A stretch of DNA of 64,000 nucleotides from Candidatus Fraserbacteria bacterium (GCA_029262795.1 JAJCYT010000018.1:195762-259761), one strand, 5' to 3'. Positions 1,656 to 41,922 are shown, numbered from the stretch's first letter. Made by a program: numbers and translations. The notes: generated by a model not told the origin, from the sequence alone.

Positions 1656-2014
1656 TCGTTGAACATTTAGACGCTTACGAAGTGGCTTTGGTGATTTGGA
1701 GCTTTTTATTCGGTTTGCTGGGACTCCAGGGTTTGATTTCGACTTTTCTGGAAGGAGAGGTCGATGCTGTAGGGACCCATCCCGAGCCGAAAAGCTCCCT
1801 CGTCGTCGTGGTGCTGATGGCCGCGCTCACCGCCGTAATTATGTGGAGCGCGTGGACGTTTACACAACAGCTCTTGTTGGGATCGTCTGAAACTCTGGGC
1901 TGGCTGGCGGCCTTAATCGCGTTGGCGATGTCTGCGCTGATTGGCCTCTATCGACGTTATTTTATTCCAGACGAAGTGATTGCTCAGGCGCGCGACGATG
2001 AAGTGCCCTGGTAA
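1652..2014 (+). CDS. small integral membrane protein (3 predicted TM helices)
   Basis: ATGA start/stop overlap with upstream gene; hydrophobic segments VALVIWSFLFGLLGL, LVVVVLMAALTAVIMW, LGWLAALIALAMSALIGL. Confidence 0.5.
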   Translation: MIVEHLDAYEVALVIWSFLFGLLGLQGLISTFLEGEVDAVGTHPEPKSSLVVVVLMAALTAVIMWSAWTFTQQLLLGSSETLGWLAALIALAMSALIGLYRRYFIPDEVIAQARDDEVPW

Positions 2015-2029
2015 AGGAGGGGAAGGCTT

Positions 2030-2635
2030 GTGGCTGAAGAACGTGACGAGCAGACTCAGGACAATATGAAAATGGGACGGCGCACCTTGGTGCGCTGGTT
2101 CATTGGCATCGGCGCGGTCAGTTCGGTGGCCGGACTCAGCTCAGTGCTGAGTACGATCGAACGGGAAAATGGCGTAACCGACACTGTTGTGCAAGCGGGA
2201 GACCCCTTGGTGTTTGCCGTGGGCACGAACCAGGGCGAACCAATTATGTATTCCAGTATCCAACCTGGGCAAGGCGCGCTGGCCTATCCACGCGGTAAAG
2301 AAGTTCAAGAGAACTTGGTGCTCCTTTTGCACCTCAATTCAGCAGACTTGGTCGAGCCGACTGTACTGGAGTGGACGGCAGATGGGATGGTCGCCTATAG
2401 CGCGATATGCACCCATTTGGGATGCACAGTGAACTTCTCACACGAAGGGATGGAGGGAGCAGAATACCCTCACCTCCACTGTCCGTGTCACACGGCGTTG
2501 TTCAATCCCCAACAGGGGGCTGAAGTGGTCGGCGGACCTGCACCTAGGGCTTTGCCGCAATTGCCAGTGGCTGTGGATGAGGAAGGCATGGTGGTGGTCG
2601 CAGGGCCGTTTGGGACGCCGGTTGGCGTGTTATAA
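2030..2635 (+). CDS. Rieske [2Fe-2S] iron-sulfur protein, probable Tat substrate
   Basis: Rieske boxes CTHLGCTV and CPCHTALF; twin-arginine motif GRRTLVRW; real start may be the ATG of MKMGRR ~36 nt downstream of the GTG. Confidence 0.85.
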   Translation: MAEERDEQTQDNMKMGRRTLVRWFIGIGAVSSVAGLSSVLSTIERENGVTDTVVQAGDPLVFAVGTNQGEPIMYSSIQPGQGALAYPRGKEVQENLVLLLHLNSADLVEPTVLEWTADGMVAYSAICTHLGCTVNFSHEGMEGAEYPHLHCPCHTALFNPQQGAEVVGGPAPRALPQLPVAVDEEGMVVVAGPFGTPVGVL

Positions 2636-2646
2636 AGGAGGCAGCG

Positions 2647-3945
2647 ATGGTGGTGGATCTCGGCAAAAAAGGATGGCTGAACCAACGTTTGGATGTGGTT
2701 CGGTTCCGCAAAAAATTTCTGAGGAAAGCGTTTCCCGTTCACCTGTCATTTTTCCTGGGCGAGATCGCGTTGTTCAGCTTGGTGCTGCTTGTGATCACGG
2801 GCGTTTATCTCTCATTTTCGTACGAACCCTCTGCGAATTTGGTCAAAGTTGAGGGCCAATCTTTGCCAGCCGCCTACCATAGCGTGACTCAGATCAACGA
2901 ACAGCCTTTTGGTCTCATTGTGCGCCAAGTCCATCACTGGTCCGCCCACCTGATGATTGCCGCAACCCTGCTGCACTTGTTGCGTGTGTTCTTCACCGGG
3001 GCGTTCCGCAAACCCCGTGAGATCAATTGGATCATTGGCCTGTTGCTGTTGTTCGCCACAGTGGGCGCTTCGTTTACAGGCTACTTGCTTCCTTTCGATG
3101 AATTTGCGGTGACGGCCTCTGGCATCGGATACGGGATTGCCCGATCGGTGCCGTGGATTGGTCCGGCTGTTGCCGATTTCGTGTTTGCAGGGCAGTTTCC
3201 TTCGCCAGGTATGGTGTCCCGCTTCTATGGTTATCACATCATGCTTGTGCCCATGATCCTTTTTGGCTTGCTTGCTTTGCACATGGTTGTGATGCTAAAG
3301 CAAAAGCACAGCGAGTCTCGTTTCAATCTTGGAAAAGTTGAAGAAGGCAAGCTGTTGGGCATTCCAATGTGGCCGCATCAGGCGGCGCTGATGGCCCAAC
3401 TCTTTTTGCTGATGACGGCCGGCATTCTTATGATTGCCAGCCTATTTCCCGTGCATCCGGTGGAGCTTTACGGACCTCCCGGACCAGAGACGCCGACAGT
3501 CAAGCCCGATTGGTATTTCTTGTGGATTTACGGAGCGCTCAAACTCGTGCCAGGCTGGATGGATTATCACTTCTTGGGAGCTGCAATCAACGCTGAGGCA
3601 ATTGGGAGCGTGATTTTCCCAGGTATCGTTGTCCTGGTCACGCTGCTCTGGCCTTTCCTCGAACGCTCCAAGGACAAAGTCAACTACATGCAACGTTCGC
3701 GCGACGCCGCAGGCCGCACCGCGATTGGGGTAGGCACACTCGTGTTCCTTGCCGTGCTTTCGGTTGCCAGTTACGAAGACACGTTATCGATAGCGCTTGA
3801 TGTTTTCCGCTGGACGGCTCTGATCCTGCCGCTGCTCGTAGGTGGGGTAACTTATGGATTACTCATCCGTTTGAAGCGCCAAACACCTAAACATCAAAAC
3901 GAGACAAGCCCCGAAAACGCGAGGGCCAAGGCCGCGACTGATTGA
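2647..3945 (+). CDS. cytochrome b of a bc/b6f-type complex (fused cyt b + subunit IV-like C-terminus)
   Basis: 432 aa, multiple TM helices, conserved His ligands (QVHHWSAHLMIAATLLHLLRVFFTG; YGYHIMLVPMILFGLLALHMV); directly follows Rieske gene. Confidence 0.85.
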   Translation: MVVDLGKKGWLNQRLDVVRFRKKFLRKAFPVHLSFFLGEIALFSLVLLVITGVYLSFSYEPSANLVKVEGQSLPAAYHSVTQINEQPFGLIVRQVHHWSAHLMIAATLLHLLRVFFTGAFRKPREINWIIGLLLLFATVGASFTGYLLPFDEFAVTASGIGYGIARSVPWIGPAVADFVFAGQFPSPGMVSRFYGYHIMLVPMILFGLLALHMVVMLKQKHSESRFNLGKVEEGKLLGIPMWPHQAALMAQLFLLMTAGILMIASLFPVHPVELYGPPGPETPTVKPDWYFLWIYGALKLVPGWMDYHFLGAAINAEAIGSVIFPGIVVLVTLLWPFLERSKDKVNYMQRSRDAAGRTAIGVGTLVFLAVLSVASYEDTLSIALDVFRWTALILPLLVGGVTYGLLIRLKRQTPKHQNETSPENARAKAATD

Positions 3946-4209: not shown

Positions 4210-4407
4210 ATGGTGAAGATACTTTCGGGAAGCCTGATAGGGCTCAGCATCATGGCTGCGCTGGGCGGTCTGTTCGGTGTGGTGGCCCACACCGTGTTTA
4301 ACGCCACTGAAGTCTGCAATTACTGCTTCGGCACGGCGGTAAGCTGTATGGGGCTGGCCTTTTTGGTTGCGATGTTCGGCCTCTACCGCGAAGGGCATTT
4401 CTCGTAA
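4210..4407 (+). CDS. small membrane protein (65 aa)
   Basis: AAAGGAGG RBS 6 nt before ATG at 4210; MVKILSGSLIGLSIMAALGGLFGVVAH... two hydrophobic helices. Confidence 0.3.
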   Translation: MVKILSGSLIGLSIMAALGGLFGVVAHTVFNATEVCNYCFGTAVSCMGLAFLVAMFGLYREGHFS

Positions 4408-4751
4408 GACTTCAACGTTAACTATTGAAAAGCAAAGTTGCTATTTTTGTGTGTCTCATACACCCCACCCTGGCGGGGCGCACCTGCCTCAATGCAAACC
4501 TAACAGGCCATATCCATGCAGTGTTTGAAAATCAACGGCAGCGCCTTGACTGGGGGCAAGTTGCGGAATAGATGTCGAAAGAAAGAGAATTTCAGTTTAA
4601 ATACCGTTCAGGTTGTCAAAGCAACAGATAAGGTTAAAGAAATTTTTAAAGATCACAATGTGTTAAACTCATCTCGAAAACGGATCATGGATGACTGGAG
4701 TCATACTGGCCATATCAATGGAAGATACCAGGTTAACTGTTTCAACTTATC

Positions 4752-5276
4752 ATGAACTCAAATATCTACGCAGAGAAACCGGAGCAGCACGAAGAAAACA
4801 AGCAGCAAGAGCCAGGCTGGGGCAAGCGTCTGCTGGGTTACATGTTGGTTGGTATGGTCGTGTTTACAGCCTCCTTTTGGGTGTTCCAGCAAGCGTATCA
4901 GCAGGAGCTTGACACCGTGCAGGCAGACAACCTCACCGAGGTGCGAATTCTATCCATGAACACCTTTGCTTCTCGTTCCGGGGAGACCACGCACGAAATA
5001 ATTTTCTTTGACAACCTGGCCAACACATTTAGGGTGAATACCAGTCAGGGAACGTATGAACGGTTGTCTTTGGGTCAGCAAACCTCTTTGTATTTTAACG
5101 AGCCTTTGAGCTATGCATTGTTGGACGGAGAAATGACGAAGTTTGGGATTGAGCTGTGGATCATATTTTTGCTGTTGTTTACGGTGGCAGTCCTTTTATT
5201 GTTTTTCGGGGTGGGGCGTATTTTTAAACGGTTCAAAAAAAGAGGCCGACCTGAACGTCCGCTCAGCGAGCTTTAG
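4752..5276 (+). CDS. membrane-anchored hypothetical protein
   Basis: TM segments LLGYMLVGMVVFTASFWVF and IELWIIFLLLFTVAVLLLFFGV; no recognisable catalytic motif. Confidence 0.4.
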   Translation: MNSNIYAEKPEQHEENKQQEPGWGKRLLGYMLVGMVVFTASFWVFQQAYQQELDTVQADNLTEVRILSMNTFASRSGETTHEIIFFDNLANTFRVNTSQGTYERLSLGQQTSLYFNEPLSYALLDGEMTKFGIELWIIFLLLFTVAVLLLFFGVGRIFKRFKKRGRPERPLSEL

Positions 5277-5344
5277 AGCAAAATTCTGGATTCAAATCGA
5301 TAATGACCTGTATCATTTTATGTTTATGTGTTTCTGGTTAAGCT

Positions 5345-6493
5345 TTGCATAGCCCCCCCGTGGGGGCCGCCATGGTTTTCAATCGTGGCTCGCAGACGAA
5401 AGGAGCCAATACCGTGAGTACAAAAACTCATTTACTGAAACGACTGGTGCCGCTGATGCTCATACTTGTGTTTGCCTCCAGTGCGTTTTCTAATCAAGTC
5501 GAAATCGGCGTTCGAGTGGATCAGCAAGCGCCCGATTTCACCCTGCCCCAAGTGGACGGGGACCCTGTAACCCTCTCTGATGTTGTGGCTCAAAACGACG
5601 TCACTCTGATTTACTTCTTCCTGGCGGCCAGCTGACCTACCTGTCCTTCGGCATGGTTGCCGGAAATTCAAAAAGAACTCGACGGACGCTACGCAGGCCT
5701 AAATGTAGAAACCTTGGCCATCTCCACAGGTGATCCTGAATGGTATTTGAGCGCGTTTAAAAAAGAACTCAATGTCACCATGCCCTGGTTGAGGATGGAC
5801 ACGCGACTGCCAAACCCCTATTACCAGGAACAATACGATCTGTGGGATCTCAATGACACGCACCCCACTCTGGCGGTATTGGATGCCAACGGCGTGATCC
5901 GCTACCGGGCCACGGGCGATGGGGGCGTGGGCGAAAACAACATCAACTACCGCGTCGCCTTCAACATGATTGGCGAATTAATTGACGAAACCCAGACCCA
6001 GGACAATCAGTCTGCAGTGGGGGGCACGCCGGATAGCGTTGCAACCATCGGGTTGCTCGCTCCGGACTTCACGCTCAACGATATGAACGGCAACGCCGTG
6101 ACCCTTTCAGATTATCTGGGTACAGTTGTTGTCATCGATTTCTGGGATTGGGGCTGTGCCGTCTGCGGCGACCCCAACAATGTCAACCTGAAAAGCATCT
6201 TCCGCGAATACTCCCGTGAACAGGTGACCGTGCTCTCGGTCAACCTTTACCCTGAACCGGAAATGGAGGAAATGGAGGATTATATCGGGACACAACGGAT
6301 TCTTTATCCCGTGATGCTCAAAGGATACGATGCGGTTGGCAGCTCTTACAACATTACTCAGTTCCCCATGCTGATGATAATTGACAAGGATGGCATCATC
6401 CGCTACCGAGAAGTGACCGAGTCCCTTGTCTTCAATGAGGATGCTCAAACAATGCTGGACACCTTGGTTGGCGAGTTGGGTGGCTCCATGTAA
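5345..6493 (+). CDS. two-domain periplasmic thioredoxin-like (TlpA/AhpC-TSA fold) selenoprotein; in-frame TGA at 5633..5635 read as Sec (U-P-T-C) in domain 1, WDWGCAVCG in domain 2
   Basis: ORF track splits it into 5345..5635 and 5657..6493 in the same frame. Read-through gives ...TLIYFFLAAS-U-PTCPSAWLPEIQKELDGRY.... A near-identical paralogue at 18537..19652 has TGA at the aligned position. Signal peptide LLKRLVPLMLILVFASSAFS; true start probably ATG 5372 or GTG 5414. Confidence 0.6.
5646..5665 (+). other. candidate bacterial SECIS hairpin 14 nt 3' of UGA
   Basis: CGGCA-uggu-UGCCG stem-loop (5649..5662) with GGU in the loop, extendable by flanking UUC/GAA. Confidence 0.4.
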
Positions 6494-6532: not shown

Positions 6533-6844
6533 ATGACCCAAGCACAAGCTCCAACCCGTACGGGAAGCCTGTCGCACAACCGGCGTGGCAAAAGCGATAT
6601 CCAATTACGACTTCGCACGATAGGCGGGCATCTTAATGGCATCGAGAAGATGATCGATCAGGATGCGTATTGTGTGGACATCCTGCGTCAGATCACGGCG
6701 GTGCAATCGGCCTTGTCTCAGGTTGCCTTGATTATGATGTCCAGCCACATGAATCACTGTGTCAAATCTGCCATTCAACGAGGCGAAGGCGATGACGAAA
6801 TTGAAGAACTGGTCGATCTTTTGAAATGCATGAAACATCTTTGA
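6533..6844 (+). CDS. CsoR/RcnR/FrmR-family metal-sensing transcriptional repressor
   Basis: LRTIGGHLNGIEKMIDQDAYCVDILRQITAVQSALSQVALIMMSSHMNHC matches the DUF156 helical-bundle pattern with Cys/His metal ligands. Confidence 0.75.
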   Translation: MTQAQAPTRTGSLSHNRRGKSDIQLRLRTIGGHLNGIEKMIDQDAYCVDILRQITAVQSALSQVALIMMSSHMNHCVKSAIQRGEGDDEIEELVDLLKCMKHL

Positions 6845-7048: not shown

Positions 7049-7531
7049 TTAAACAACGATGAGTGGAACCTTCATACCAGCTTCGTAATGGCCGGTCACA
7101 AAGCAACCGATTTCCCATTCACCCTTCTTGTCTTCAGGAATCTGGATGAAGACTTCTGCACCTGATTCACCTTGGTGGGTTTCCACACCAAAGAAACCGT
7201 CCAACAACCACTCTTTGTAGTTGTGGTTTTCCAGGTCAGGGTCTCTACCGAACAGTGCATTATGGGCGACATCATCGTCCAGGTTAAAGAAATAGAGAGC
7301 GTATTTCTTGCCTGCTTCAAGCGTGATAGGAGCGTTGTTTTCGCCGCCAGGAATGCGGAAAAACATGGACCCCATTTCGATGAAAATTTCCTCATCCAAC
7401 CAAAGTTCGTGTGGTTCATCGGCTTGAGCTCGAACGTTTCTGGATTTCACCATTGTAGCGGCCAGTCCACCCAGAGCTGCTGCACCTGCGGTTTTGAGCG
7501 CTTTGCGGCGCGTCATTTTCTTTTCAGACAT
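7049..7531 (-). CDS. Tat-exported cupredoxin (blue copper) domain protein
   Basis: Twin-arginine signal MTRRKALKTAGAAALGGLAA; C-terminal type-1 Cu motif GCFVTGHYEAGM (C-x4-H-x4-M). Confidence 0.6.
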   Translation of the reverse strand: MSEKKMTRRKALKTAGAAALGGLAATMVKSRNVRAQADEPHELWLDEEIFIEMGSMFFRIPGGENNAPITLEAGKKYALYFFNLDDDVAHNALFGRDPDLENHNYKEWLLDGFFGVETHQGESGAEVFIQIPEDKKGEWEIGCFVTGHYEAGMKVPLIVV

Positions 7532-8362: not shown

Positions 8363-9941
8363 GCAATCCTCCTAACGACGTTGGCAATGCCTGATGTGCC
8401 AAGGGCAAGGCGAACCAGAAGTGGCTTCCCTCACCAAGTGCGCTGTCAAAGGCCAGCGTTCCGCCCATCAGGTCAACGTAGCGATTGACCACAGTTAGCC
8501 CCAATCCCATGCCTTGACGATTACGACCCGTTCGTTCTGCGCGGGTGAACGGCTCAAACAGCCTGTTTTGATCCTGCAGCGCAACCCCGATGCCAGTGTC
8601 GGACACCGAGAAATAGATGGAATGATTCCGGCGTTCAGCAAAAACCCGTACTTGACCACAGTCGGTGTATTTGATTGCGTTGTCAATTAGATTCAATAAC
8701 ACCTGTCTCAACTTGGTCTTATCGGTTTTCACTGGCAGGCTGGGTGCGACGTCGACCACCAGCTTGAGCCCTTTATTTAATAGCAATGGCCGTTGGCTTT
8801 CGAGCACTTCGTCCACGACCTCGGCCGCATTGAAATACACGCAGTGCAGGGGTTCGCTGCTGCCTTCCAGCCTGGAAAACTCGATTAAATTCTCGATCAG
8901 CGCCAGCAAGTGTTTGCCCGCCCGCAGGATGGCATCTGTGTATTGATGACCCGCTTTACTGAGTGTGACATTGACCTCATCCCGCAGCAGACTGGCGAAC
9001 CCCAGCACGGAGTGTAGCGGGGTTCGCAATTCATGACTGATTGTGGTTAAGAAATCGGATTTGGCGTGGTTGGCTTTCTTTAACTCTACATTCGTACGCC
9101 TCAATATATCTCGCTGATAGACGATCGAGTGGGCCATTGTGTTGAACTCATTGGCCAGCATCTCAATTTCGTCTCCGCTGTGAATATTGGTGCGAACAGA
9201 CACCCTGCCGGATCCAAATGCTCGCATCGTGTCGCTTAAGTGCTCGATTGGTCCCAAGATCATGCGGAACAAAATCCAACTGCACAGGATGCCCAGCGCC
9301 ATCAACCCCAAGCTCAATCCGATGAGCAACAGCGATTCCTGTTGCAACTCCTGTTTCAGTGGTTGCAACGAAAATCCCACACGAACGTAACTGTCGCCGC
9401 CATTGATCAGGCGCTCGTACGCTTGCGGCGTGATGAAGCGGCCGTATTTCGATAGGGAGTTGCTGGCTTGCTCAAAAGGATAAATGATGTCGAGGTGGTT
9501 GGCATCTGCTTGACTGGGCTTAAACTCGGTGATCAGGATCTGTGTGGACGGTGGTTGCGTGGCCAGGTTGATGTCAAAACGCTGCTTTTGGGAAACCATG
9601 TTGCCATACAACACTATCTGTACATAACCCAGTTCCTCTGTCCACAAGTGTTCGGCCAACGTGTCCAGGTCGTGACCAACCTCAAAGATCAGTCCCTCCA
9701 CTGCTTCCTCAGCGGCGTGCCTAGCATACTTCAGCGCTTGCTGCTCGTATTGAGCCTTGAGTTGGTTATTTAAGCGCTGTGTGGTTAAGACCCCAAAAGC
9801 AACGGCCACAATCACACTGAACCCCAAGAACGCGAGCATAAATTTGTAGCGTAAGCTCAAGCGCATGGGGTCCCCTTCTCCAATCAACGGATCGCGGCCT
9901 GAAATCTGACCGCGACCACTGGTCGTTGCGGCCTTAACCAT
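8343..9941 (-). CDS. sensor histidine kinase
   Basis: HisKA H-box SHELRTPLHSVLGF, HATPase N/G boxes (LIDNAIKYT, GMGLGLTVV), two TM segments; likely start at internal MRLSLRYKF. Confidence 0.85.
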   Translation of the reverse strand: MVKAATTSGRGQISGRDPLIGEGDPMRLSLRYKFMLAFLGFSVIVAVAFGVLTTQRLNNQLKAQYEQQALKYARHAAEEAVEGLIFEVGHDLDTLAEHLWTEELGYVQIVLYGNMVSQKQRFDINLATQPPSTQILITEFKPSQADANHLDIIYPFEQASNSLSKYGRFITPQAYERLINGGDSYVRVGFSLQPLKQELQQESLLLIGLSLGLMALGILCSWILFRMILGPIEHLSDTMRAFGSGRVSVRTNIHSGDEIEMLANEFNTMAHSIVYQRDILRRTNVELKKANHAKSDFLTTISHELRTPLHSVLGFASLLRDEVNVTLSKAGHQYTDAILRAGKHLLALIENLIEFSRLEGSSEPLHCVYFNAAEVVDEVLESQRPLLLNKGLKLVVDVAPSLPVKTDKTKLRQVLLNLIDNAIKYTDCGQVRVFAERRNHSIYFSVSDTGIGVALQDQNRLFEPFTRAERTGRNRQGMGLGLTVVNRYVDLMGGTLAFDSALGEGSHFWFALPLAHQALPTSLGGLHETARH

Positions 9942-10902
9942 CTTGATTGATCAATTGCTCCAACGTTTCAAAAAACGCCGTGGTCAGGGGGACGTTCTGC
10001 CGATACTGGATCACACCTTCTGGGTCAATAATGAGTGCACCCGTTGAGGTGAACCCGTAGTAGACGGCTGTTTTTAAGCCATCCATCAATAAGGTGAAAT
10101 CGACTTCCCGTTCCTGCTTGAATGCCTTGAGTGTTTCGGGATCAGGTGCCAAATCCATGGTCACCCCCAGCACGGCCACATCGTCTCCATAGGCCTCCAA
10201 TGCCTGCTGCAAAGGAGAGAGTACATCGCCACAGTTGGCGTCATGAGAACCAAAGAAGCCCAATACAATTGTTTTTCCTGCGTAGTCCGACAAGCTCACC
10301 GGCTCGAGGTCCAGGTTTTCCAGCGTGAAAGCCAGAGCCCTTTTTCCCACCTGATTGCCCACCTCCAACTCGCCGACCAATGTTTCGACCATGTCAGCAG
10401 ACTCGTCATCGAAGACTTTGTTCGTCTCCTTGAGGCGGATGATGCCGTCTTTGTCGATGAGGAACAGGATGGGGGTTGCAAACACGCGATAGTCAAAGGC
10501 AGTCTCAAGTGCGTTGACCAGAATCGGAAAACCAAGTGCCTTTTCTTCACGATAGGCTTTGAGCTGTTCCAGGTCAGGCTGCGGATCCTGGTTCAGTGAG
10601 AGCACTTGAATTTGTTCACGGCTATAAACGTCGTGCACGCGAGATTGGAGCGCCGGCATTTCGACCTCTCGACACTCAATACAACCCCATCCCCAGAACG
10701 TCAGGGCGACCACCTTGCCCCTGAAATCAGACAGCGACACCTCATTTCCATCCAGGTCGAACAAGCTGAAATCGGGCGCCATCTCGCCCACAACACCTTG
10801 GCCAAAAGCGGTGGATGGGCCCAGCATCAAGCTCAACACCCCCACCACAAGCGCCAACCTCCAGGCGGATCGAACAGCAGACCACATGTTACATCCCCTC
10901 AC
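9934..10902 (-). CDS. two-domain secreted TlpA-like thiol:disulfide oxidoreductase
   Basis: Signal peptide; domain 1 FWGWGCIECR CxxC motif; domain 2 thioredoxin-like with single Cys (FFGSHDANCGDV). Confidence 0.7.
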   Translation of the reverse strand: MRGCNMWSAVRSAWRLALVVGVLSLMLGPSTAFGQGVVGEMAPDFSLFDLDGNEVSLSDFRGKVVALTFWGWGCIECREVEMPALQSRVHDVYSREQIQVLSLNQDPQPDLEQLKAYREEKALGFPILVNALETAFDYRVFATPILFLIDKDGIIRLKETNKVFDDESADMVETLVGELEVGNQVGKRALAFTLENLDLEPVSLSDYAGKTIVLGFFGSHDANCGDVLSPLQQALEAYGDDVAVLGVTMDLAPDPETLKAFKQEREVDFTLLMDGLKTAVYYGFTSTGALIIDPEGVIQYRQNVPLTTAFFETLEQLINQDG

Positions 10903-11461
10903 TTTCAGGTAACTCGGCTACGAGTTCGTCGATGAAGGTCTTGACCTCTTCATCAAACAACCTGTTTCCTTCTTTAAAGCGGATCACGCCTTCGTGATCG
11001 ACGATGATCAAAATCGGGGTGGCAAACACCAGGTAGTCCACCGCAGTCTTCAACCCGTCAACAAGCATGGGGTACGTGATCTGTTTGTCCGCTATGTATT
11101 CGCGGATGTTGCCCAGATTTGGGTCGACGTCCTGATTTACCGCCAACACAAGCACTTGTTCGCGTGAAAAAACGTCCCACACTTCGTGTTGTAAGGCTGG
11201 CATCTCTTCTTCCTTACATGAGATGCACGTCCATCCCCAGAACGTCATGACCACAACTTTGCCGGCGTGGTCGGAGAGGGTGAAATCAACCGTCTCCGTG
11301 TCGACATCCTCTAGGGGGTTGAGGTTCATCAAGGTAAAATCGGGCGCGAGGTCGCCCACATTGGGACCGACCACAGGTTCATCCTGTGCGTTCAAAGCCA
11401 CGCCAAAACACATGCCCAAACTCAACACAATTACCCAAACTGCTAATTTTTTTTTGTACAT
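10889..11461 (-). CDS. secreted TlpA-like thiol:disulfide oxidoreductase
   Basis: Signal peptide LAVWVIVLSLGMCFGVALNA; FWGWTCISCK CxxC motif; paralogue of the adjacent gene. Confidence 0.7.
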   Translation of the reverse strand: MYKKKLAVWVIVLSLGMCFGVALNAQDEPVVGPNVGDLAPDFTLMNLNPLEDVDTETVDFTLSDHAGKVVVMTFWGWTCISCKEEEMPALQHEVWDVFSREQVLVLAVNQDVDPNLGNIREYIADKQITYPMLVDGLKTAVDYLVFATPILIIVDHEGVIRFKEGNRLFDEEVKTFIDELVAELPESEGM

Positions 11462-12111: not shown

Positions 12112-13107
12112 CTACTTCCAGAGCTCGGCCAGTGCCGCGTTGAAGTAAGGGAAAGCCACGTTTATTGGCGTGAGATCGGAACCGTAAAACATCAGATCTG
12201 TGGGTGCTCCCAGCAGTTCCACACCCTGACTTAGGTGGTCACTCAATGCACTCGATGCTTGTAGCAAGAGCGCATAATGGTCCCAGGCGACGATACCGTG
12301 AAGCAGGCCTTGCTCAAACAGCGCCTCCCAGTTTTCAGGAACGCCCAATGCCCCCAGCCGGATGTCACTGCCAAGCTCCTCATGAAGGTAGCTGACGATA
12401 TCGGACGCGCCCGTCACCAAGGAGTGGTCGGTCACAATAATGGCGGCTAAGTCTGGGTGATCCTTGTAGGCTTGAGACGTTTCGGTGCTGCCACTTTCCT
12501 GAACCACCGGATAGGCACCGCGGAAGTGGGGGCTGGTTTTGAGCCCTTCAAGCAGATCGGCCTGCAAAGGGTCGATAAAGTAGCCAACCACGGCAAATGG
12601 CCGCGGCCCAACATCCTCCATGGCCTGTGCCCAGGCTACGCCCAATTGGAAGGCATCTACCCCAAACAGAGGCAGGTCCAGACCTTCGATCCGGCGCACG
12701 GTTAAGGCCAAAGGCGTCTCATTCACCTCCACCAGTTCGCGCACGATGGGGGTTAAGGGGTCGGCCTCTTCCACCGGCGCTGCTGGCGTGAGCAAGATGG
12801 CTTCGAAGGCCAGGTCTCTCAATTCTTCCAGAGCTTCCACTTGTTGTGCAGACACCGACAGCCGCGCCAGCATTTCGCTAAGCGCGTCCCGCGTGCAAAA
12901 GGCTGCGGCCGGAGTTTCGTACAACCCCACCTCCATGTTCAGAGTTGTACTCAAAGTGCTTTGGACCGCTTCAAAATCTTGGGCCATCGCGTCTACGGAG
13001 TAGGTGACGATCCCCATGGCAATCACACTTTGGCCACCTGCCAGAGGTGCCAAACAGAGCAGCAGTAACAGGGCAACGACACAGCGTCTCATCGTTTCCT
13101 CCTTCAT
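12112..13107 (-). CDS. secreted periplasmic-binding-protein type 1 (LacI/sugar-binding fold)-like protein
   Basis: Signal peptide; paralogue of 13172..14149 and 16583..17668; PBP1-like pattern (IAMGIVTYSVD..., LLHGIVAWDHYALLLQAS). Confidence 0.5.
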   Translation of the reverse strand: MKEETMRRCVVALLLLLCLAPLAGGQSVIAMGIVTYSVDAMAQDFEAVQSTLSTTLNMEVGLYETPAAAFCTRDALSEMLARLSVSAQQVEALEELRDLAFEAILLTPAAPVEEADPLTPIVRELVEVNETPLALTVRRIEGLDLPLFGVDAFQLGVAWAQAMEDVGPRPFAVVGYFIDPLQADLLEGLKTSPHFRGAYPVVQESGSTETSQAYKDHPDLAAIIVTDHSLVTGASDIVSYLHEELGSDIRLGALGVPENWEALFEQGLLHGIVAWDHYALLLQASSALSDHLSQGVELLGAPTDLMFYGSDLTPINVAFPYFNAALAELWK

Positions 13108-13171
13108 AAGTGAAGGCAGCCCTGAGGAAAATCCCCAGGGCTGCCTTTGTTAGACCTTTGTCCCTTTTTCG

Positions 13172-14149
13172 TTACCAGAAACGTCCCACCCGGTTAGGTG
13201 TGTCCTGCGAATACGGATAGGAAGTGTGGTTAAACGAAGTTGACCTGCTGTAATACAGGACGTCCGGATAAAAATTGTCTGGCGTAACGCCATCCCGGAT
13301 CATCACTTTGGCCATCACCGACGCCTGCATCAGCGTGAGGTAATTGTCCCAAGTGAACACCCCGTGCAACAGTTTTTGATCAAACAGATCTTTCCAAGTG
13401 TCAGGTGCAAACACCGATCCCAGCTTAATCAGCCGGTCTGTACCTGCCGTGACAGCCTGAATGGCAGCTGCAGCGCCAGCAGCGTATCTCGAATGGGAAA
13501 CCATCACATACTCAATCGGTTCGGTTTCGTCGGCGATGGCTTGTGCGGTTTCTGCGCGGCCATCGCTCAAGGCTTCATAGAAACCTCCGAAGGAGTCTAA
13601 TTCCATGAGCGGTGAGATGAAGGCGTTTTGGGTTGTATCGGACAAATTACCGACCACCACAAAGCGTCCACCATCCTGTTGTTCGGCCATGACTTTACCC
13701 AGTTCAGCCATATCAACGCCGGCAAAGGGCAGGTTCAGTTCGGGGATGTTGCGACCGTGCAACACTACGGGAACCTGTTTTGCTGCATTGCTAATGGCAT
13801 TGCTCACCAAGCTGAAATCATCCACTGGAGTGATGACCAGTCCTTGCACACCTGCGGCAAGCAGGGAGTCAATCGCAGCGACCTGATCTGCGGCCGTGCT
13901 GGCTTCGCGGATGTCTACCAGATAATGCTGAGGTTCGACATCGGGCAGGTCACGCGAGCTGGCGTTGCCTTCTGGCACTGGCAATACTTGCAAATCACCA
14001 TTGATTGGGTTGGTGTAGAATTGAATCCCCCACACTTGACCGTCGATCTTGTAGGTCACCACACCAATGATAATGTCGGGCTGGCTTTGGGCGATCACCA
14101 AAGGGGCAACCAGAGCCGCCAGCAACATAAAGATGAAAAAGCGTTTCAT
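13172..14149 (-). CDS. secreted periplasmic-binding-protein type 1-like protein, 13 nt downstream of deiodinase-like selenoprotein gene
   Basis: IIIGVVTYKID...; AAIDSLLAAGVQGLVITPVDDFSLVSNAISNAAKQVPVV; RFVVVGNLSD; LLHGVFTWDNYLTLMQASV = PBP1 hallmarks. Confidence 0.55.
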   Translation of the reverse strand: MKRFFIFMLLAALVAPLVIAQSQPDIIIGVVTYKIDGQVWGIQFYTNPINGDLQVLPVPEGNASSRDLPDVEPQHYLVDIREASTAADQVAAIDSLLAAGVQGLVITPVDDFSLVSNAISNAAKQVPVVLHGRNIPELNLPFAGVDMAELGKVMAEQQDGGRFVVVGNLSDTTQNAFISPLMELDSFGGFYEALSDGRAETAQAIADETEPIEYVMVSHSRYAAGAAAAIQAVTAGTDRLIKLGSVFAPDTWKDLFDQKLLHGVFTWDNYLTLMQASVMAKVMIRDGVTPDNFYPDVLYYSRSTSFNHTSYPYSQDTPNRVGRFW

Positions 14150-14161
14150 GAGCTACCTCCC

Positions 14162-14953
14162 TTAAAAGCCTGGTTCCACACCGAAGATGTTGCTCAACAC
14201 TTCGTCGTGCTGTTCGGGGCGTTCCCAGTTCTTGAAGTGGATGATCCGGCCCTTGAGGTCGATGACCATGCCAAATTGTGGCCCCATGCCCATTGAACTT
14301 GACACAACGGTGGTCGTGGAGCTTGTCCGCTCGAGCAAGTTGATTTTGTCTTCCTCAATAAGGAGGATGTGGTTTTCAGGACGAACGCCGTTTTCTACGT
14401 AGGAGAAGGTTTTCTCCATCAACAACGCACGTTCACGTCGGGCAGCATAAGTTTCTACGTCTAAAACTTCTGACTGCGTGAATTCAGGATGGCGTTCGCG
14501 GCCGTATAGATTAACGATCACGAATGGGAATTCGATGAATTTTTCTGCAATCTTATTGTTCGGAACCCAGTTCCGTAAATAAGGTGGTCAGTACCAGCTG
14601 CCGTTGATCAGCAGTACAAATTTTTCACCGCGGAACTGGGACAGCGTAACGGGCACACCATCTCTGGTCAGCTGTGTGAAATCAGGCACGATCATGCCTG
14701 GCTGAACAACGTCAGGGCTACGGAAACCGTATCTTGGATCGAGTTCACCGGCTGCAACCAAACCTGGTGCGGTGTCGGTGAAGAAATTTGGATCGGCCAG
14801 ACCTGCCTCTGTGTAGTACTCTTCGGCGAGAGCCTGCCAGGCGTCCAACTCTCCTTCTTCATAATTTTGTGACAACACTGTGCTTTGGCCTAAAATCATA
14901 AAGGCCAGTGCAACGAGGGCTGCCAAGGTGAGAACTTTACGCATGTTGATCAT
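14162..14953 (-). CDS. periplasmic iodothyronine-deiodinase-like selenoprotein (Prx-like fold); in-frame TGA at 14588..14590 read as Sec
   Basis: ORF track splits at TGA (14588..14953 and 14162..14521, same frame). Read-through gives ...FVLLINGSWY-U-PPYLRNWVPNNKIAEKFIEFPFVIVNLYGRERHPEF.... Matches eukaryotic DIO active site FGSCT-U-PPF and downstream FLIIYIEEAHPSDGW pattern. Signal peptide present. Paralogue at 17683..18411 has TGA at same position. Confidence 0.65.
14561..14575 (-). other. candidate bacterial SECIS hairpin ~12 nt 3' of UGA
   Basis: mRNA CGGAAC-ugg-GUUCCG immediately downstream of UGA-CCA-CCU-UAU-UUA. Confidence 0.4.
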
Positions 14954-15418: not shown

Positions 15419-16168
15419 TCACCCCTCCGCTGGGCCTGGGTATTTTTCACGGGCCATGGCTGCATCGTGGTCGGTCAGCACTGGGCTGTGGCAAAGATCG
15501 GTGTACATGACGCTTCGAAACTCGCAACCGGGATCACTTCGATTAATGTGCGAGCCGTTGTCAGGCGGTGGCATAAATCCCAGCGCCCGGCCAACCAGAT
15601 ACAGCAGCGTGCGCTGTAAATCCTCTGTGTATAACTCGGTGTCGTTGTCGTAATAATATTCGAAGTGGTTGCCCTCAATCACGATATCGGCTTCAATCAG
15701 TGTCGCCGGCGAGCCGTTGGCCTGCACACATCCTTCATCTATCTGTGCAGCATTGGCGCAACGGATGAATGCCTTGCCCTGGATAAAGCCTCCCACATCC
15801 TCCGTCACGCTGACCGCAATCACGTTGGTCAAGTCTTTTCCATTGTGGCATCCTGCCGCCTCACACGTTGTGGTGGTAGGCATTTCCCCTTCGTAGATCA
15901 GCCGGATGCGCGTCATTGAAATATTGTTCCAGGTGGAAAATGCATCATGAATGAAATCTTCGAGGTCGTCTGTGGCGTACCTAAGGCTGGCGTAGAAGCG
16001 GACGGGAAAATCCGGCCAACTGACATTGACCTCCCCAGCCTCAGACTGAGCCAGCAGGCTGTCGACCGGCAGGAACAGCAACGATGCAAGGCAAACAATG
16101 AGGGTTAGCTTACGCATATATTTTTGCCTCCTTGTGGGTGGTTTTGGCATCGTCACTACATCACTCAA
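15419..16168 (-). CDS. secreted matrixin (peptidase M10)-like protein with degenerate zinc motif
   Basis: Signal peptide MRKLTLIVCLASLLFLPV (likely real start ~16117); N-terminal AFSTWNNISMTRIRLIYEGE resembles matrixin; expected HExxHxxGxxH replaced by LVGRALGFMPP. Confidence 0.45.
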   Translation of the reverse strand: MSDVVTMPKPPTRRQKYMRKLTLIVCLASLLFLPVDSLLAQSEAGEVNVSWPDFPVRFYASLRYATDDLEDFIHDAFSTWNNISMTRIRLIYEGEMPTTTTCEAAGCHNGKDLTNVIAVSVTEDVGGFIQGKAFIRCANAAQIDEGCVQANGSPATLIEADIVIEGNHFEYYYDNDTELYTEDLQRTLLYLVGRALGFMPPPDNGSHINRSDPGCEFRSVMYTDLCHSPVLTDHDAAMAREKYPGPAEG

Positions 16169-16582
16169 GTCAGTGTAAAATTGTCCACTTCTTATTTAAT
16201 AATTGAAGTATCTTCTCAAGTTGGCAAAATCAAATGACCCATATCAGTCGCTCAATTGATGACCATCATATTTACACGATAAATGCCAATGGCATCTGCC
16301 AGAACCGGATTGTGCCAAGAGAAACGGTATAAGCACCCAACCACCCTCTGTTTATAAGCTCGGGATAAAACCATTCTTATTTTGCTATTTTATGATTCAC
16401 CCGGATTTGAGACACACAAGGTAAAGCGCCTGCAAAAAGCAAGCGCTTTACTTCCGAGGAGATACAAAAAGGCAGTGTCGCAAAAACGATTTCTAGAAAT
16501 GCTTAGATTCTTGTGACACTGCCAACAAACCGAACCAGCGGGTCGCCCCCTGGTTTTATGGCTATCTTTTTCCAGGCTTGGT

Positions 16583-17668
16583 TTAACCAAACCACCAATA
16601 CCAGATCATGCCGAACTGACGTTCGCTCTCATAAGGGAAACGCACGTAAGCGGGCAATCCGCCACCAATGGCACCTGTTCCCAGCCACATGATGGACACA
16701 TAATTGTCGTTCAACGGCGTGCCATCGAGCAAATGCACCTTGAGGGCAACAAGACCATCCAACAGCATTGGATAGTAGTCGGGTTGTACGTTGCCTTTGA
16801 TACGTTTTTGCTGGATCAGGCTGGTAAAGTTTTCCGGTGCGCCAAACACCCCCACCGAGATCTTGCGTTCGGAATCGATCACGGCTTCAACGATGTTTGC
16901 GGTCAACTGATGATCCATCACCGCAATGCCCACCAAGGCTTCGTTTGCTGCAATCAGAGCCGCAGTTTCTGAAGCATCCGTGGTGACCACGACTTCCAGC
17001 AAGTGATCGCCAACGGCTTCCTTAAAGCCTTCGATCATGCCCATTTGCAAAGGATCATCCAAGCTGGTGGCAAACAAGGCCACTTTGTCTTCGTCAGCTC
17101 GGTTTCCGAATGCTCCGGCACCATTGAGTGGTTCTTGAGGAGCAGATAACGCCATCCAGCCACGGCCCCAAGCGTTGCCAAATGCAAATGGTTCAACCCC
17201 AACAAATGCGGCATTGTTAATGCCAGGGATGTCCCGATAAGCAAACGCCATGGGAATGCCGGCGCGGATGGTGCGTTCCACTTCGTCGCGCAGAGCATTC
17301 ACATTGGGAACCGGCGTCAACAAGATACCATCGACACCCAGCTCTCGAAGTTCTTGCAACGCGGCAATTTGGGCTTCTGCCGTATCGGCGTTTCTAACGA
17401 CCAACTCGACCAGCGGTTTATTTTGCACGGCTGGGGTTTCCAGCACCCCGCCGCCAGTTTCGCCATAGGCACCCTGAATCGGCAACACGTTGATGTCTCC
17501 CAACAGCTTGCCGGGGTCAGCCAGCCTGGCTGTGGACATGGCTAGAAAATCCACCTGATAGGTGATCACTCCCAACACCATCGTCCCGTTTTCCTGGGCC
17601 ACATTACTAACCGTGCTGGCGCTCACCAAAACAGCTATTGCCAGCATGAGTATAAAGATACGTTTCAT
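16583..17668 (-). CDS. secreted periplasmic-binding-protein type 1-like protein, 12 nt downstream of second deiodinase-like selenoprotein gene
   Basis: MVLGVITYQVD; AAEAQIAALQELRELGVDGILLTPVPNVNALRDEVERTIRAGIPMAFAYRD; ISVGVFGAPE. Confidence 0.55.
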   Translation of the reverse strand: MKRIFILMLAIAVLVSASTVSNVAQENGTMVLGVITYQVDFLAMSTARLADPGKLLGDINVLPIQGAYGETGGGVLETPAVQNKPLVELVVRNADTAEAQIAALQELRELGVDGILLTPVPNVNALRDEVERTIRAGIPMAFAYRDIPGINNAAFVGVEPFAFGNAWGRGWMALSAPQEPLNGAGAFGNRADEDKVALFATSLDDPLQMGMIEGFKEAVGDHLLEVVVTTDASETAALIAANEALVGIAVMDHQLTANIVEAVIDSERKISVGVFGAPENFTSLIQQKRIKGNVQPDYYPMLLDGLVALKVHLLDGTPLNDNYVSIMWLGTGAIGGGLPAYVRFPYESERQFGMIWYWWFG

Positions 17669-17682
17669 GGATGATCACCTCC

Positions 17683-18411
17683 CTATAATCCGGGTTCCAG
17701 GCCGAAAATCTGGCTGAGAACTTCGTCCAGTTTTTCCGGTCGTTCCCAAATCTGCGATTCAACGATATGTCCGGTTGGATCGATGATCCAAGCGCCTTGT
17801 GGCCGCAGCCCATAGAGGGCGGTTGCCACGGTGGCCATGGTTGGCTGTTCGTGCCCGACATCGGGGATTTGCCCCACCGGGAAGCTTTCATCGATGAGCA
17901 GATAACGGTTGGCTGGGAATGCCTGTGATGTGAGGTTCAGCGTCAGCATCATCAGGCGCGCCCGTTCAAGGCGTTCTGCATAGGTTTCGATGAGCCATTC
18001 TTCATCGGTTACAAATTCTGGATGACGTTCACGACCGTAGATCGACAAGATCACAACTGGGAAGTCGGCAAATTTCTGACCTAATTTATCCATAGGAAGC
18101 ACGTTCCTGAGGAATGGTGGTCAGTACCAGCTCCCAGTTTCTATTACAACAAACGAATTGTCCAGGTATTGGCTCAGGCTGAATTCAATCCCGTTGATAT
18201 CCAACAGGGTGAAATCCGGCCCCAACATCCCTGGCATAATCGCTGAAAAGTCATTGAATTGATTACCCAACAGCGCATTTTCATCAACGCCTTCAACATA
18301 AAAGGCTTGCGCATTGGCAATCCAGGTGTCCATATCGCCCTGAGCTGAAGTAATGCTGCTGAACAGCGCCAGTGCCAGTGCAAAAATGGACATCATTCTG
18401 AAGACTTTCAT
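17683..18411 (-). CDS. periplasmic iodothyronine-deiodinase-like selenoprotein; in-frame TGA at 18121..18123 read as Sec
   Basis: Split ORFs 18121..18411 and 17683..18102 in same frame. Read-through gives ...FVVIETGSWY-U-PPFLRNVLPMDKLGQKFADFPVVILSIYGRERHPEF.... Signal peptide MMSIFALALALFSSITSA. Hairpin AGGAAgcacgUUCCU (18094..18108) after UGA. Confidence 0.65.
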
Positions 18412-18536: not shown

Positions 18537-19652
18537 TCAGTTCACATGGTTGACCAAGGGCGATCCCAAGTGTTCATTCAGAATTTGGATCGCCGTGTTG
18601 TCAAAATCTTCACCGCGGTAAAGGATCACACCATTGATATCCAGCAATAGAAACACAAAGTCACCCGAAGCCTGATAGGCCCAGGCCACATCCCCCAACT
18701 CATCTTTTACAACGGCATAGGTAATCCCGGCACTTCTAATAAAATCCTTGAGCACCTCGATTGGCGAATACTGGTCGATGCCCAGTACGGTCAACTTTTC
18801 CGGGCCATAATCATCCAACAAATCCTGGGCAAACAAACCTGGCACCAGCGAGCCACATTCCACGCATCCCGTCCCCCAAAACGACAGCAGGATGAGTTTG
18901 CCTCGATTGTAAAAATCAGACAAGGTCAGGGGATTGCCTTCCACATCGTTTAAGGTAAAATCGATGGCTTGTAATCCTGCCTGATTGCCTATCTCAGGCA
19001 GGGCGGCCATGTTGGCCTCTTCCAGCAGTTGCCCGACCAGATCAAAACCACTTCTATAATCCAGGTCTTCTTCGGTGGGACCACCATATCCTGTGTCCCG
19101 AAATCGTATGATTCCATTGGCATCAAGCACCAAGAGGGTGGGATGCCCTTCTGTGGTATCCAGGTTGTATTGCGCATAGATTTCAGCGAAATATCTTCCC
19201 ACACCAATGTCCATGGAAAGCCAGGGAAAAGTGACCCCCAGTTCTCTTTTGAAGGCATGTAAGTACCACTCAGGGTCGCCGGTGGAAATTGCAAGCCATT
19301 GCACGTTTTGTCCGTTGTATCTTCCATCGATTTCTTTTTGCATCTCCGGCAGCCATGCCGATGGGCAGGATGGTCAGGTGGCAGCAAAGAAGAAGTACAA
19401 CACAGTCACATCATACTGCTCGACTTGCTCCTGCAGTTGAATGGGGTCTCCGCCGCCCAACTGAGGCAGGGTGAAATCGGGCGCTTGCTGACCCACGTCA
19501 TACCCGATTTCGACTGAGACATTTGAAGCTTCTGCATAAGTGATGATTGGATCAGTCGTGGTTGTGGCCGTCAGCCCAATCAGAACAACCCACAAGAAGG
19601 CCTTTGTCCATTTAAGTTTTGTTGTGTACTTAAACATGATCGTTCCTCCCAA
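18537..19652 (-). CDS. two-domain periplasmic thioredoxin-like selenoprotein (U-P-S-C in domain 1, WGTGCVECG in domain 2); in-frame TGA at 19374..19376
   Basis: Split ORFs 19374..19652 and 18537..19343 in same frame. Read-through gives ...VLYFFFAAT-U-PSCPSAWLPEMQKEIDGRY.... Paralogue of 5345..6493. Hairpin CGGCA-uggc-UGCCG (19347..19360 region) follows UGA. Confidence 0.6.
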
Positions 19653-19681: not shown

Positions 19682-20467
19682 TCAAAAATCAATCACGACA
19701 TTTTGCCAATATTGGTCCTGCAACCAGAGTGGCAGTTGCATGGGGTTGTCTGCATGGCAAGCGAAACAGTCCACACCTGTTATAAAGTCGTCTTTGACAA
19801 AACGGTTTGAAATTTCGATTGCCTCATGGGTGGCCGGAACGGAGGTCTGATGGCAGCCCGGACAACCAAACAGATCGCGCCAAGTGGGGTCCATCAGCGC
19901 ACGCGGTGTGAACCTGGAATGGCAATTGGCACAGGTGGTCTTTTCGACATAACTGGAAATCGTGACGCTGTCATCGTTTTGTTCAATTTGAAATTCATTA
20001 TGGCAAAAGGTGCATTCCGTGCCAAAATCCATAATCTTCTGCTTCTGATGCACCTGATGGTGGTTCTTTTCTTCAGTGATTTCGATGGCGCCATCTTCGG
20101 TAGGCATTTTTCGCATCACGGTTTCCTGGCTATAGATGTCGCTGTGACACGTCAGACAGGTTTGTCCCAATTTCGCAACATCTTCAGGGACTTCACTCAC
20201 CGTGTTGAGGTTAAGGTGAAATTGGGCCACCTGATCAAATAGTGTTGCCACTGCCGGATGAGGGCCAGGGGTGCTTGAGCTGGTTGAAATTACCGAGCCC
20301 GTTATCAACACGTCTTCCAGGCTGTGCCCGTCTGAAGGAAAGTTCAGCGGCGGCGCTGCCTGTGCAATTTGTATCAGAAACAAACTCATCAAGATAAATG
20401 CAATCCCTCGTAAACGTTTCATTTTTCTGTTCATTGTGGTTTTTTTTGTTTTCATGATGACCTTCAA
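19682..20467 (-). CDS. pentaheme c-type cytochrome (secreted/periplasmic)
   Basis: Five CxxCH motifs: CLTCH, CTFCH, CANCH, CPGCH, CFACH; signal peptide GIAFILMSLFLIQIAQA. Confidence 0.8.
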   Translation of the reverse strand: MKVIMKTKKTTMNRKMKRLRGIAFILMSLFLIQIAQAAPPLNFPSDGHSLEDVLITGSVISTSSSTPGPHPAVATLFDQVAQFHLNLNTVSEVPEDVAKLGQTCLTCHSDIYSQETVMRKMPTEDGAIEITEEKNHHQVHQKQKIMDFGTECTFCHNEFQIEQNDDSVTISSYVEKTTCANCHSRFTPRALMDPTWRDLFGCPGCHQTSVPATHEAIEISNRFVKDDFITGVDCFACHADNPMQLPLWLQDQYWQNVVIDF

Positions 20468-38441: not shown

Positions 38442-38675
38442 TATAGCCATTCGCCTAGCTTGAAACCATAGCCAACATTGGCATATTTAGATTTGGTCTA
38501 AATTTTTTCGCCCGCCCTAGGGCGATTATTAAATATGATTCTAGATCCATATTATTAGCATATACTTTTATTCTAAGATGGTTGAGTTAAATCGTAGCAT
38601 GGGATGTTATGATTGGAGTTCGTAATATTATTGGATAGTATTTACAGATCCTTACTCCAAAACAAAGGGTAAACA

Positions 38676-41918: not shown

Positions 41919-41922
41919 ACTC

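Follow-up and report, generated by a model that had tools for sequence, protein, structure and literature searches.

We analysed a stretch of 64,000 nucleotides of DNA from a Candidatus Fraserbacteria bacterium (GCA_029262795.1, JAJCYT010000018.1:195762-259761), called the window below, and found that it encodes two members of a family of exported selenoproteins. Each of the two genes (gene A and gene B) is directly followed by a gene for a protein with the type I periplasmic-binding-protein (PBP) fold; we call such a set of genes a module. Comparison with related loci indicated that an in-frame UGA in these genes is read as selenocysteine (Sec), and that each enzyme gene forms an obligate, co-diverging pair with its own PBP-like gene, to which it is translationally coupled. 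The proteins would form a divergent, deiodinase-like branch of the thioredoxin-fold group that also includes TlpA and the peroxiredoxins. We propose that enzyme and partner act together outside the cytoplasm as a selenium-dependent redox unit, and we give this proposal as a whole an even chance of being correct.

Selenocysteine at the in-frame TGA

The frame of gene A (14953..14162, complementary strand) had one TGA as its sole interruption. A preliminary description of this DNA had pointed to the TGA in NGSWY-U-PPYLRN, to a segment downstream that resembles the EAHP motif of deiodinases (NLYGRERHPEF), to a signal peptide, and to a hairpin 12 nt after the UGA. All four were borne out by the translation and the nucleotide sequence (Table 1). 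Gene A ends with TAA and likely starts at ATG 14944 (MRKVL...), 10 nt after AGGAGG, as read from the sequence and from the N-termini of homologues. The protein had been called periplasmic; we use the wider word exported, which makes no assumption about the envelope type of the host. Both mature proteins, A and B, contain no cysteine at all, so Sec is the only redox-active chalcogen in them.

We found that the TGA was conserved throughout the family. It occupied the same alignment column in 20 of 20 copies (the two window paralogues and 18 gene copies from other loci, on one metagenome-assembled genome [MAG] and on metagenome contigs). The copies fall into three clades at the Sec site: GSW[YF]-U-PP[YFW] (clade 1), GSGFT-U-PPF (clade 2) and GNA[TS]-U-[KP][TG][YF] (clade 3). 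Genes A and B are 38% identical, and the similarity continues across the TGA. Selenoprotein families usually have homologues with Cys at the Sec position. No such relative was found in a profile search of 1.84 billion representatives, in which the sole full-length relative, P0012, had Ser at this position. Homologues with the two halves as separate proteins had been considered in the preliminary description along with Cys homologues, and neither kind was seen; the halves were never apart or out of frame at any locus examined. A family that never swaps Sec for Cys is unusual, and this suggests a chemistry that truly requires selenium.

The hairpin downstream of the UGA was also conserved. Its six base pairs were paired in 97.6% of cells (14 distinct sequences), and compensatory double changes were present in three of the six pairs (C-G to A-U, G-C to C-G, and C-G to U-A). 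These changes arise through synonymous changes of Arg or Asn codons matched by Pro-to-Ala or Val-to-Ile substitutions. The covariation score was reached by none of 500 shuffles, and the signal collapsed in a control with slid partners. The minimum free energy (MFE) was -10.3 kcal/mol for a 50-nt fold of the gene A region (z = -2.1) and ranged from -8.4 to -15.9 for 48-nt segments of family copies. Bacterial selenocysteine insertion sequences (SECIS) have a stem of 4-16 bp, a loop of 3-9 nt with G in one of its first two positions, a distance of 16-37 nt from UGA to loop, and an MFE of -7.5 kcal/mol or lower (PMC13188914). The family hairpin lies within these rules, with its 6-bp stem, UGG loop, 18 nt from UGA to loop, and MFE in the stated range. 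No SECIS family of Rfam was matched in gathering-score and E-value scans. Because Rfam covers bacterial SECIS poorly, we used covariation in its place.

TGA is the ordinary stop codon of 16 of the 35 window genes. The genetic code is therefore standard, and the in-frame TGAs of four window genes (A, B, and two TlpA-like genes described below) are special sites; an alternative code in which UGA specifies Trp or Gly was ruled out on the same grounds. We also considered that the TGA might be a true stop, in a pseudogene or between two small genes, or a sequencing error. Public gene calls do cut the gene into fragments of 118-119 amino acids (96 for the N-terminal part of gene B), and there is no gene for tRNA-Sec or sel gene within the 64 kb. 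Such an artefact would have to account for the same TGA in 20 independent copies with protein conserved on both sides, for a covarying hairpin at the canonical distance from it, for halves that stay together and in frame in the loci examined, and for three further genes of the same type in the window. It is essentially excluded. The comparative evidence thus indicates that the UGA is read as Sec, aided by the hairpin 12 nt downstream, and that the family consists of genuine Sec-recoding genes.

The family is extremely rare in public collections, where all of these genes appear cut at the TGA and without a name; the window alone contained four missed selenoprotein genes. A query with the full-length protein gave one match among 5.8 billion clusters, since database proteins end at the TGA. 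A profile of the C-terminal half gave 16 matches in the 1.84 billion representatives, nearly all of them C-terminal fragments, as gene callers cut the genes at the TGA. A scan of 185,579 species genomes, built on a six-row alignment, found a single MAG (CAZNGF01) with four copies, and further loci came from metagenome contigs and database look-ups. The record of this MAG (loci L002, CAZNGF010000035.1, and L003, CAZNGF010000008.1; four modules) carries the label 'uncultured Thermotogae bacterium'. Its GC content is 64-67%, against 44.8% for the window, and the family therefore spans quite different genomes.

Pairing of the enzyme with a binding-fold protein

Downstream of gene A, the preliminary description had placed a PBP-like gene at a distance of 13 nt, followed by a second paralogue. 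Both genes are present. The first begins 12 nt, not 13 nt, after the gene A stop, has its ribosome-binding site inside the end of gene A, and cleared the Peripla_BP_4 cut-off of 35.1 bits (Table 1). The second is divergent and scored below that cut-off; its start is likely ATG 13092, as judged from the sequence and from homologous N-termini. This second paralogue also occurs at L002, L007, L011, L013, L014 and L016. The 79-nt spacer between the two PBP-like genes of module A contains a perfect 10-bp hairpin (GGCAGCCCTG...CAGGGCTGCC, 13115..13145, complementary strand) without a T-tract, which may fix the proportion of the two partners by stabilisation or attenuation.

The tight adjacency of enzyme and PBP-like gene, for which a survey of genomes and metagenomes had been suggested, was conserved in every related locus found. 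The PBP-like gene began 1-17 nt after the enzyme stop in every locus with downstream sequence, even in clades only ~25% identical to gene A. The PBP subfamily was no commoner than the enzyme, with 10 clusters (E <= 1e-5) in 5.8 billion, and all six whose contigs were read (the window's own, P0020, P0021, P0024, P0025 and P0027) lay behind a split enzyme gene. In a mirror-tree comparison of 13 pairs, which include paralogous modules of one genome, the pairwise identities of enzymes and PBPs were correlated (r = 0.86; Mantel, 0 of 5000). Each pair has therefore duplicated and diverged as a unit, with the PBPs changing faster than the enzymes, down to 25-30% identity between module types. Every enzyme gene has a PBP-like gene of its own, to which it is coupled in translation, and the two form an obligate, co-diverging pair.

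The PBP-like proteins lack the first helix region of the N-lobe (the Pfam match covers residues 82-282 only). Their relatives in the Protein Data Bank (PDB) were remote sugar binders (E-values of at least 4e-7); one PDB relative was the sensor domain 2x7x. A search around the modules, in the window and at all related loci, gave no ABC permease or ATPase gene, which rules out a simple ABC substrate-binding role.

Orphan binding-fold proteins encoded with a redox enzyme and a c-type cytochrome, and without an ABC transporter, occur elsewhere. MxaJ/XoxJ accompany methanol dehydrogenase and TorT accompanies TorS, TorC and TorA, TorC being a pentahaem cytochrome. The catalytic partners in those systems depend on pyrroloquinoline quinone or molybdenum, and no TorT or MxaJ NCBIfam model matched in the window. 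Another comparison is with Sao (SaoB, SaoX, SaoT; bioRxiv 10.1101/2022.07.06.499078, via PMC13188914), a selenoprotein ABC-transport neighbourhood. It likewise is reported to have a thioredoxin-like selenoprotein beside substrate-binding proteins; however, the binding proteins of Sao belong to an ABC importer that has a permease and are selenoproteins too, whereas the window modules have no adjacent transporter genes. Membership of the Sao system was ruled out, as no NCBIfam model for SaoT, SaoB or SaoX matched.

Relationship to deiodinases, TlpA-like proteins and peroxiredoxins

No curated family threshold was passed by the gene A or gene B protein. T4_deiodinase (PF00837) gave 14 bits against a cut-off of 27, with gene B only, and NCBIfam NF038285 ('deiodinase family protein') gave 27.5 bits against 250. 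Redoxin and AhpC-TSA gave 16-24 bits (cut-offs 26-26.6). Among 11 family members, all 11 had weak matches to Redoxin and AhpC-TSA, and eight had weak matches to PF00837 (E <= 1). The only NCBIfam match of both window proteins at E <= 0.001 was 'deiodinase family protein'; gene B also matched the ResA model, more weakly (E 0.0032). Against the PDB, a full-length profile matched the TlpA-like protein 3hdc (2.5e-7), Dio3 (4.3e-5) and Dio2 (1.2e-4), and a profile of the part after Sec matched Dio3 and Dio2 only.

The similarity to deiodinases was concentrated in two motifs. The Sec motif aligned with CT-C-PPF of Dio3, and the post-Sec part, PP-x(n)-K[FY]-x(n)-Y-x-x-E-x-H-P, aligned with PPF...KY...YIEEAHPS of Dio3 (YIDEAHPS in Dio2). 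YGRERHPE was invariant in clade 1, and the E, H and P were present in every aligned member. In deiodinases, the Glu and His of E-x-H-P lie where loop-D begins and belong to the proton relay (PMC11592359). The mature window proteins had neither the proximal nor the distal Cys that serve regeneration in deiodinases, and the alignment contained no conserved second loop-D His. The residue before U was Tyr, Phe or Trp in clade 1, and Thr or Ser only in clades 2 and 3.

We also compared the family with TlpA-like proteins and peroxiredoxins. There was no C-x-x-C or U-x-x-C pair and no Cys at the second position in any clade; clade 1 has an aromatic residue (Tyr, Phe or Trp) there. Of the peroxiredoxin features (P-x-x-x-T/S-x-x-C and a catalytic Arg), as read from sequence, Ser at -3 was present, Pro at -7 was missing, and the Arg position reads P-Q/N. 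An AlphaFold2 model of the gene A protein (27-row alignment, Sec as X) had a mean pLDDT of 80.2, against 44.5 for a single-sequence model. Dio3 was no better a match to the predicted fold than ResA/DsbE or the Bcp peroxiredoxins, and overall the TlpA, peroxiredoxin and deiodinase folds were matched to about the same degree.

Several outer profile matches bridge the family and known deiodinase-like proteins. P0014, P0015 and P0017 carry REAHP, as bacterial deiodinase-like proteins do, and P0012 is annotated with PF00837 and scored 49.7 bits on NF038285. P0012 (L017, ENA ERZ27237645; 427 amino acids) is a trihaem cytochrome c fused to a deiodinase-like domain with FGSSTS-S-LYLRQ, and this fusion links the deiodinase-like fold to c-type cytochromes. 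We suggest that the family is a divergent branch of the deiodinase/TlpA/peroxiredoxin thioredoxin-fold group, outside the curated deiodinase families, with active-site and post-Sec motifs that are specifically deiodinase-like. The deiodinase-like active site in the preliminary description is thus upheld by the GSxxUPPF and ExHP motifs and by the Dio3 and Dio2 profile matches, but not by the family scores, and the predicted model does not single out a deiodinase fold.

Bacterial deiodinase-like selenoproteins were reported from the Sargasso Sea in 2005 (Zhang et al.), with a redox function suggested (PMC1088965). In a 2026 review they are listed, with U-x-x-C, among more than 110 families whose functions are largely uncharacterized (PMC13188914). 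The window family shares with them (PMC1088965; PF00837; NF038285) the thioredoxin fold with Sec at the start of helix 1, a SECIS directly after the UGA, and R/E-E-x-H-P after the next strand. The known proteins have U-x-x-C and Cys homologues (PMC13188914, PMC1088965), whereas the window family has U-P-P-[YFW] or U-[KP]-[TG]-[YF] and is Cys-free, is exported, and has a conserved N-terminal helical extension and an obligatory PBP-like neighbour. With vertebrate Dio1-3 (PDB 4TR3/4TR4, 9H48; PMC11592359) it shares GS-x-x-U-PP-F and the Y-x-x-E-x-H-P that opens loop-D. The two are only 17% identical, loop-D is shorter in the window family, and a signal peptide takes the place of the membrane anchor. 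Thr before Sec is missing in clade 1, and the proximal Cys, the distal Cys and the second loop-D His are missing as well. TlpA, ResA and DsbE (CcmG) are likewise exported, and the N-terminal half of the window proteins resembles the neighbouring TlpA-like genes; those proteins, however, have a C-x-x-C or U-x-x-C pair where the window family has a lone Sec.

Selenoproteins are most often of the thioredoxin-fold kind, so a new branch alone would be unsurprising. Nor is the class of enzyme new, because deiodinase-like selenoproteins of bacteria have been on record since 2005. The pairing had been put forward as a system not previously described, and this stands for the combination of selenoenzyme and PBP, which was absent from the literature searched, but not for the enzyme class. 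As far as that literature goes, the new elements are an exported branch that has Sec and no Cys, its coupling without exception to PBP-fold proteins that are orphans, and the setting with Sec-containing TlpA-like proteins and a pentahaem cytochrome.

The redox neighbourhood and a possible function

We found that the modules lie in an island of redox genes (Table 1). Module B, the two TlpA-like selenoprotein genes and the conserved pentahaem cytochrome were not part of the preliminary description.

Table 1. Features of the modules and of the surrounding redox genes (window coordinates).
Feature	Position	Strand	Remarks
Module A catalytic gene (gene A)	14162..14953	-	263 codons; exported deiodinase-type thioredoxin-fold selenoprotein
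Sec codon (TGA) of gene A	14590..14588	-	in FVLLINGSWY-U-PPYLRNWVPNN
SECIS-type hairpin of gene A	14575..14561	-	CGGAAC-UGG-GUUCCG; 12 nt 3' of UGA; loop position 2 = G
Module A partner 1, exported, type I PBP fold	13172..14149	-	325 amino acids; Peripla_BP_4 46.4 bits (cut-off 35.1)
Module A partner 2, divergent PBP-like paralogue	12112..13107	-	Peripla_BP_4 18.5 bits, under cut-off
Module B catalytic gene (gene B)	17683..18411	-	ETGSWY-U-PPFLRN; Sec codon 18123..18121; hairpin 18108..18094
Module B PBP-like partner	16583..17668	-	Peripla_BP_4 60.2 bits; starts 14 nt after gene B stop
Terminator-like 13-bp hairpin	16421..16451	-	closes module B operon
Two-domain TlpA-like selenoprotein gene, upstream of gene B	18537..19637	-	TGA 19376..19374; AAT-U-PSC; domain 2 WGTGCVEC
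Pentahaem c-type cytochrome, head of module B	19682..20467	-	5 CxxCH
Second two-domain TlpA-like selenoprotein gene	5372..6493	+	TGA 5633..5635; AAS-U-PTC
Two exported TlpA/AhpC-TSA-type Cys proteins, downstream of module A	9934..10902 (two domains), 10889..11461	-	

Both TlpA-like selenoprotein genes have a hairpin after the UGA (SECIS-like in the gene upstream of gene B). The two genes are paralogues, and public gene callers split them. The gene upstream of gene B has a counterpart with a TGA at L003 and encodes a candidate reductant of the Sec enzyme. TlpA-like proteins are encoded near modules in the window and at L002, L003, L011 and L019, and homologues of the pentahaem cytochrome precede modules at L003, L002 (twice) and L018. 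An operon for a NiFe hydrogenase (HycI, large subunit, and small subunit with a Tat signal) converges on the module at L002 (9201..12359), L007 (6473..8717) and L011 (5992..9269); at L016 a HycI maturation protease gene alone (3062..3547) adjoins the module. Genes for NosD-like beta-helix/metallopeptidase proteins lie between hydrogenase and module at L007 and L011, and after the module at L013. The window also encodes a glutaredoxin and two two-component systems that flank the cluster; among the many models matched by a window histidine kinase is one for heavy-metal sensor kinases. A membrane electron donor of the CcdA/DsbD type was looked for in the window and not found.

Other genes near the modules include a RicR/CsoR-family copper-sensing repressor (6533..6844, plus strand, 76 bits), right after the second TlpA-like selenoprotein gene, and a cupredoxin-like open reading frame (ORF) with a Tat signal and a C..H..M motif (7049..7531, complementary strand). 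These two hint at a copper connection for the island. Between the two modules lies an ORF for an exported, Cys-rich protein of 249 amino acids (15419..16168, complementary strand), which we did not count in the module because it had no family match and no counterpart at other loci. At L008, genes for a DsbA-like thioredoxin and a VKOR-family membrane protein (4250..5640) are directly upstream of the selenoprotein gene. An extracytoplasmic electron-transfer complex is encoded beside the redox island at 471..3945 (plus strand; a tandem-DOMON exported protein, a small membrane protein, a Rieske protein and cytochrome b). The region 27840..53284 is likely an integrated defence or mobile island ending at tRNA-Gln (53211..53284); it contains a 3533-amino-acid ORF, a SNF2/PLD helicase, an Eco57I/MmeI-type methylase, an SMC-like ATPase, a GmrSD-type nuclease, a Rep_trans-like protein and a large serine recombinase.

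We propose that the enzyme and the PBP-like protein would act as one extracytoplasmic unit, in which the PBP-fold partner would recognize a small-molecule (or protein) substrate. The selenolate might then attack an electrophilic centre of the substrate, with help from Ser-x-x-U and Glu-x-His-Pro as in deiodinases. Oxidised Sec could be reduced again by exported TlpA-like proteins encoded nearby, which have U-x-x-C or C-x-x-C and include a selenoprotein with U-x-x-C, and the pentahaem cytochrome c, together with the NiFe hydrogenase in other genomes, may tie the module to the electron-transport chain. This whole explanation, from partner to cytochrome and hydrogenase wiring, is in our estimate evenly balanced between right and wrong. 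A bolder version would have a new extracytoplasmic selenium-dependent reductase, with a deiodinase-type subunit fed by a binding-fold subunit and wired through TlpA-like proteins and cytochrome to a periplasmic hydrogenase. It could be a reductive dehalogenase that serves respiration or detoxification, or it could reduce some other carbon-heteroatom or chalcogen bond. We regard this version as distinctly improbable.

Several points weigh against the proposed unit. We infer substrate use, physical interaction and the path of electrons all from gene order, and we know of no established precedent for electron transfer from haem to a selenenyl group. The PBP-like proteins might instead have a structural or sensory role. 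Because most of the loci belong to uncultured organisms that are related, some of the shared synteny (the hydrogenase and the NosD-like gene) may be inherited rather than functional. The Ser of P0012 at the Sec position implies that the fold can serve a role without Sec. Finally, a search confined to the 64-kb window found no selA, selB, selD or tRNA-Sec, although the four Sec-type genes of the window speak indirectly for such machinery in the genome.

Some of the same evidence can be read differently. The enzyme might serve in envelope stress, where it would reduce peroxides, sulfenic acids or disulfides and be recycled by the TlpA-like proteins, in an island for copper or oxidative stress; the PBP would then act as a chaperone or scaffold without catalysis. 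The peroxiredoxins Bcp, AhpE and Tpx are among the top structural neighbours, the weak Redoxin and AhpC-TSA matches extend to all 11 members, the Ser three residues before U recalls the Thr/Ser of peroxiredoxins, and many exported TlpA-like proteins are encoded nearby. A copper context is hinted at by the repressor, the cupredoxin-like ORF, the NosD-like genes at L007, L011 and L013, and the heavy-metal kinase match. A DsbD-type pathway that feeds an envelope peroxiredoxin is known (PMC3322552). However, peroxiredoxin thresholds were not reached, and where peroxiredoxins have their catalytic Arg, ahead of the 'IID' strand, the family has P-Q/N, as deiodinase-like proteins do. A peroxidase needs no dedicated, co-diverging binding-protein partner, and paralogous modules with PBPs 25-30% identical suggest differing specificities. 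Envelope stress is therefore a plausible but rather unlikely alternative, which leaves the dedicated partner unexplained. The preliminary description had raised, as speculation, a periplasmic unit for reductive dehalogenation or deiodination, or for another substrate-specific reduction, with the PBP-like protein capturing or presenting the substrate. As an extracytoplasmic reductive dehalogenase or deiodinase, the unit would bind a halogenated aromatic compound through the PBP, and the selenolate would take off the halogen as X+. The conserved GS-x-x-U-P-P-F and E-x-H-P agree with this, as does GSGFT-U-PPF of clade 2 with the deiodinase Thr before Sec. The absence of Cys at the Sec position fits a chemistry in which selenium is hard to substitute, and the link to pentahaem cytochrome and hydrogenase resembles a respiratory reductase. 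Yet the enzymes lack the second His of loop-D and both deiodinase Cys residues, proximal and distal, their fold resembles ResA or Bcp no less than Dio3, the PBPs have sugar binders as their nearest relatives, and the authors of the original report on bacterial deiodinase-like proteins favoured a different, redox, function (PMC1088965). We consider a dehalogenase doubtful, with a low probability.

The enzyme might instead be a ResA/CcmG-like factor for the thiols of the adjacent pentahaem apocytochrome, or the PBP a sensor like TorT/TorS for the neighbouring histidine kinases. ResA, DsbE and CcmG were the best structural matches and a conserved pentahaem cytochrome lies just upstream, but a lone Sec with no second Cys could not by itself deliver two electrons to a disulfide, and module A has no cytochrome of its own. 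Likewise, pairs of histidine kinase and response regulator flank the window cluster and one PBP relative in the PDB is the sensor domain 2x7x, but no TorT model matched, and we saw no histidine kinase in those parts of the other loci that were annotated, whereas the coupling of enzyme and PBP is universal. Maturation or sensing is very unlikely.

If the bolder version, a new selenium-dependent reductase, is correct, it would be unrelated to the corrinoid dehalogenases, and its paralogous modules would act on different substrates. If it, or the dehalogenase, is correct, the deiodinase mechanism would predate thyroid hormones as an environmental activity. Bacterial deiodinase-like proteins have been without an assigned function for twenty years. 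The branch described here provides an experimental handle on them, with a partner whose ligands can be screened, candidate reductants encoded nearby, and a link to cytochrome and hydrogenase.

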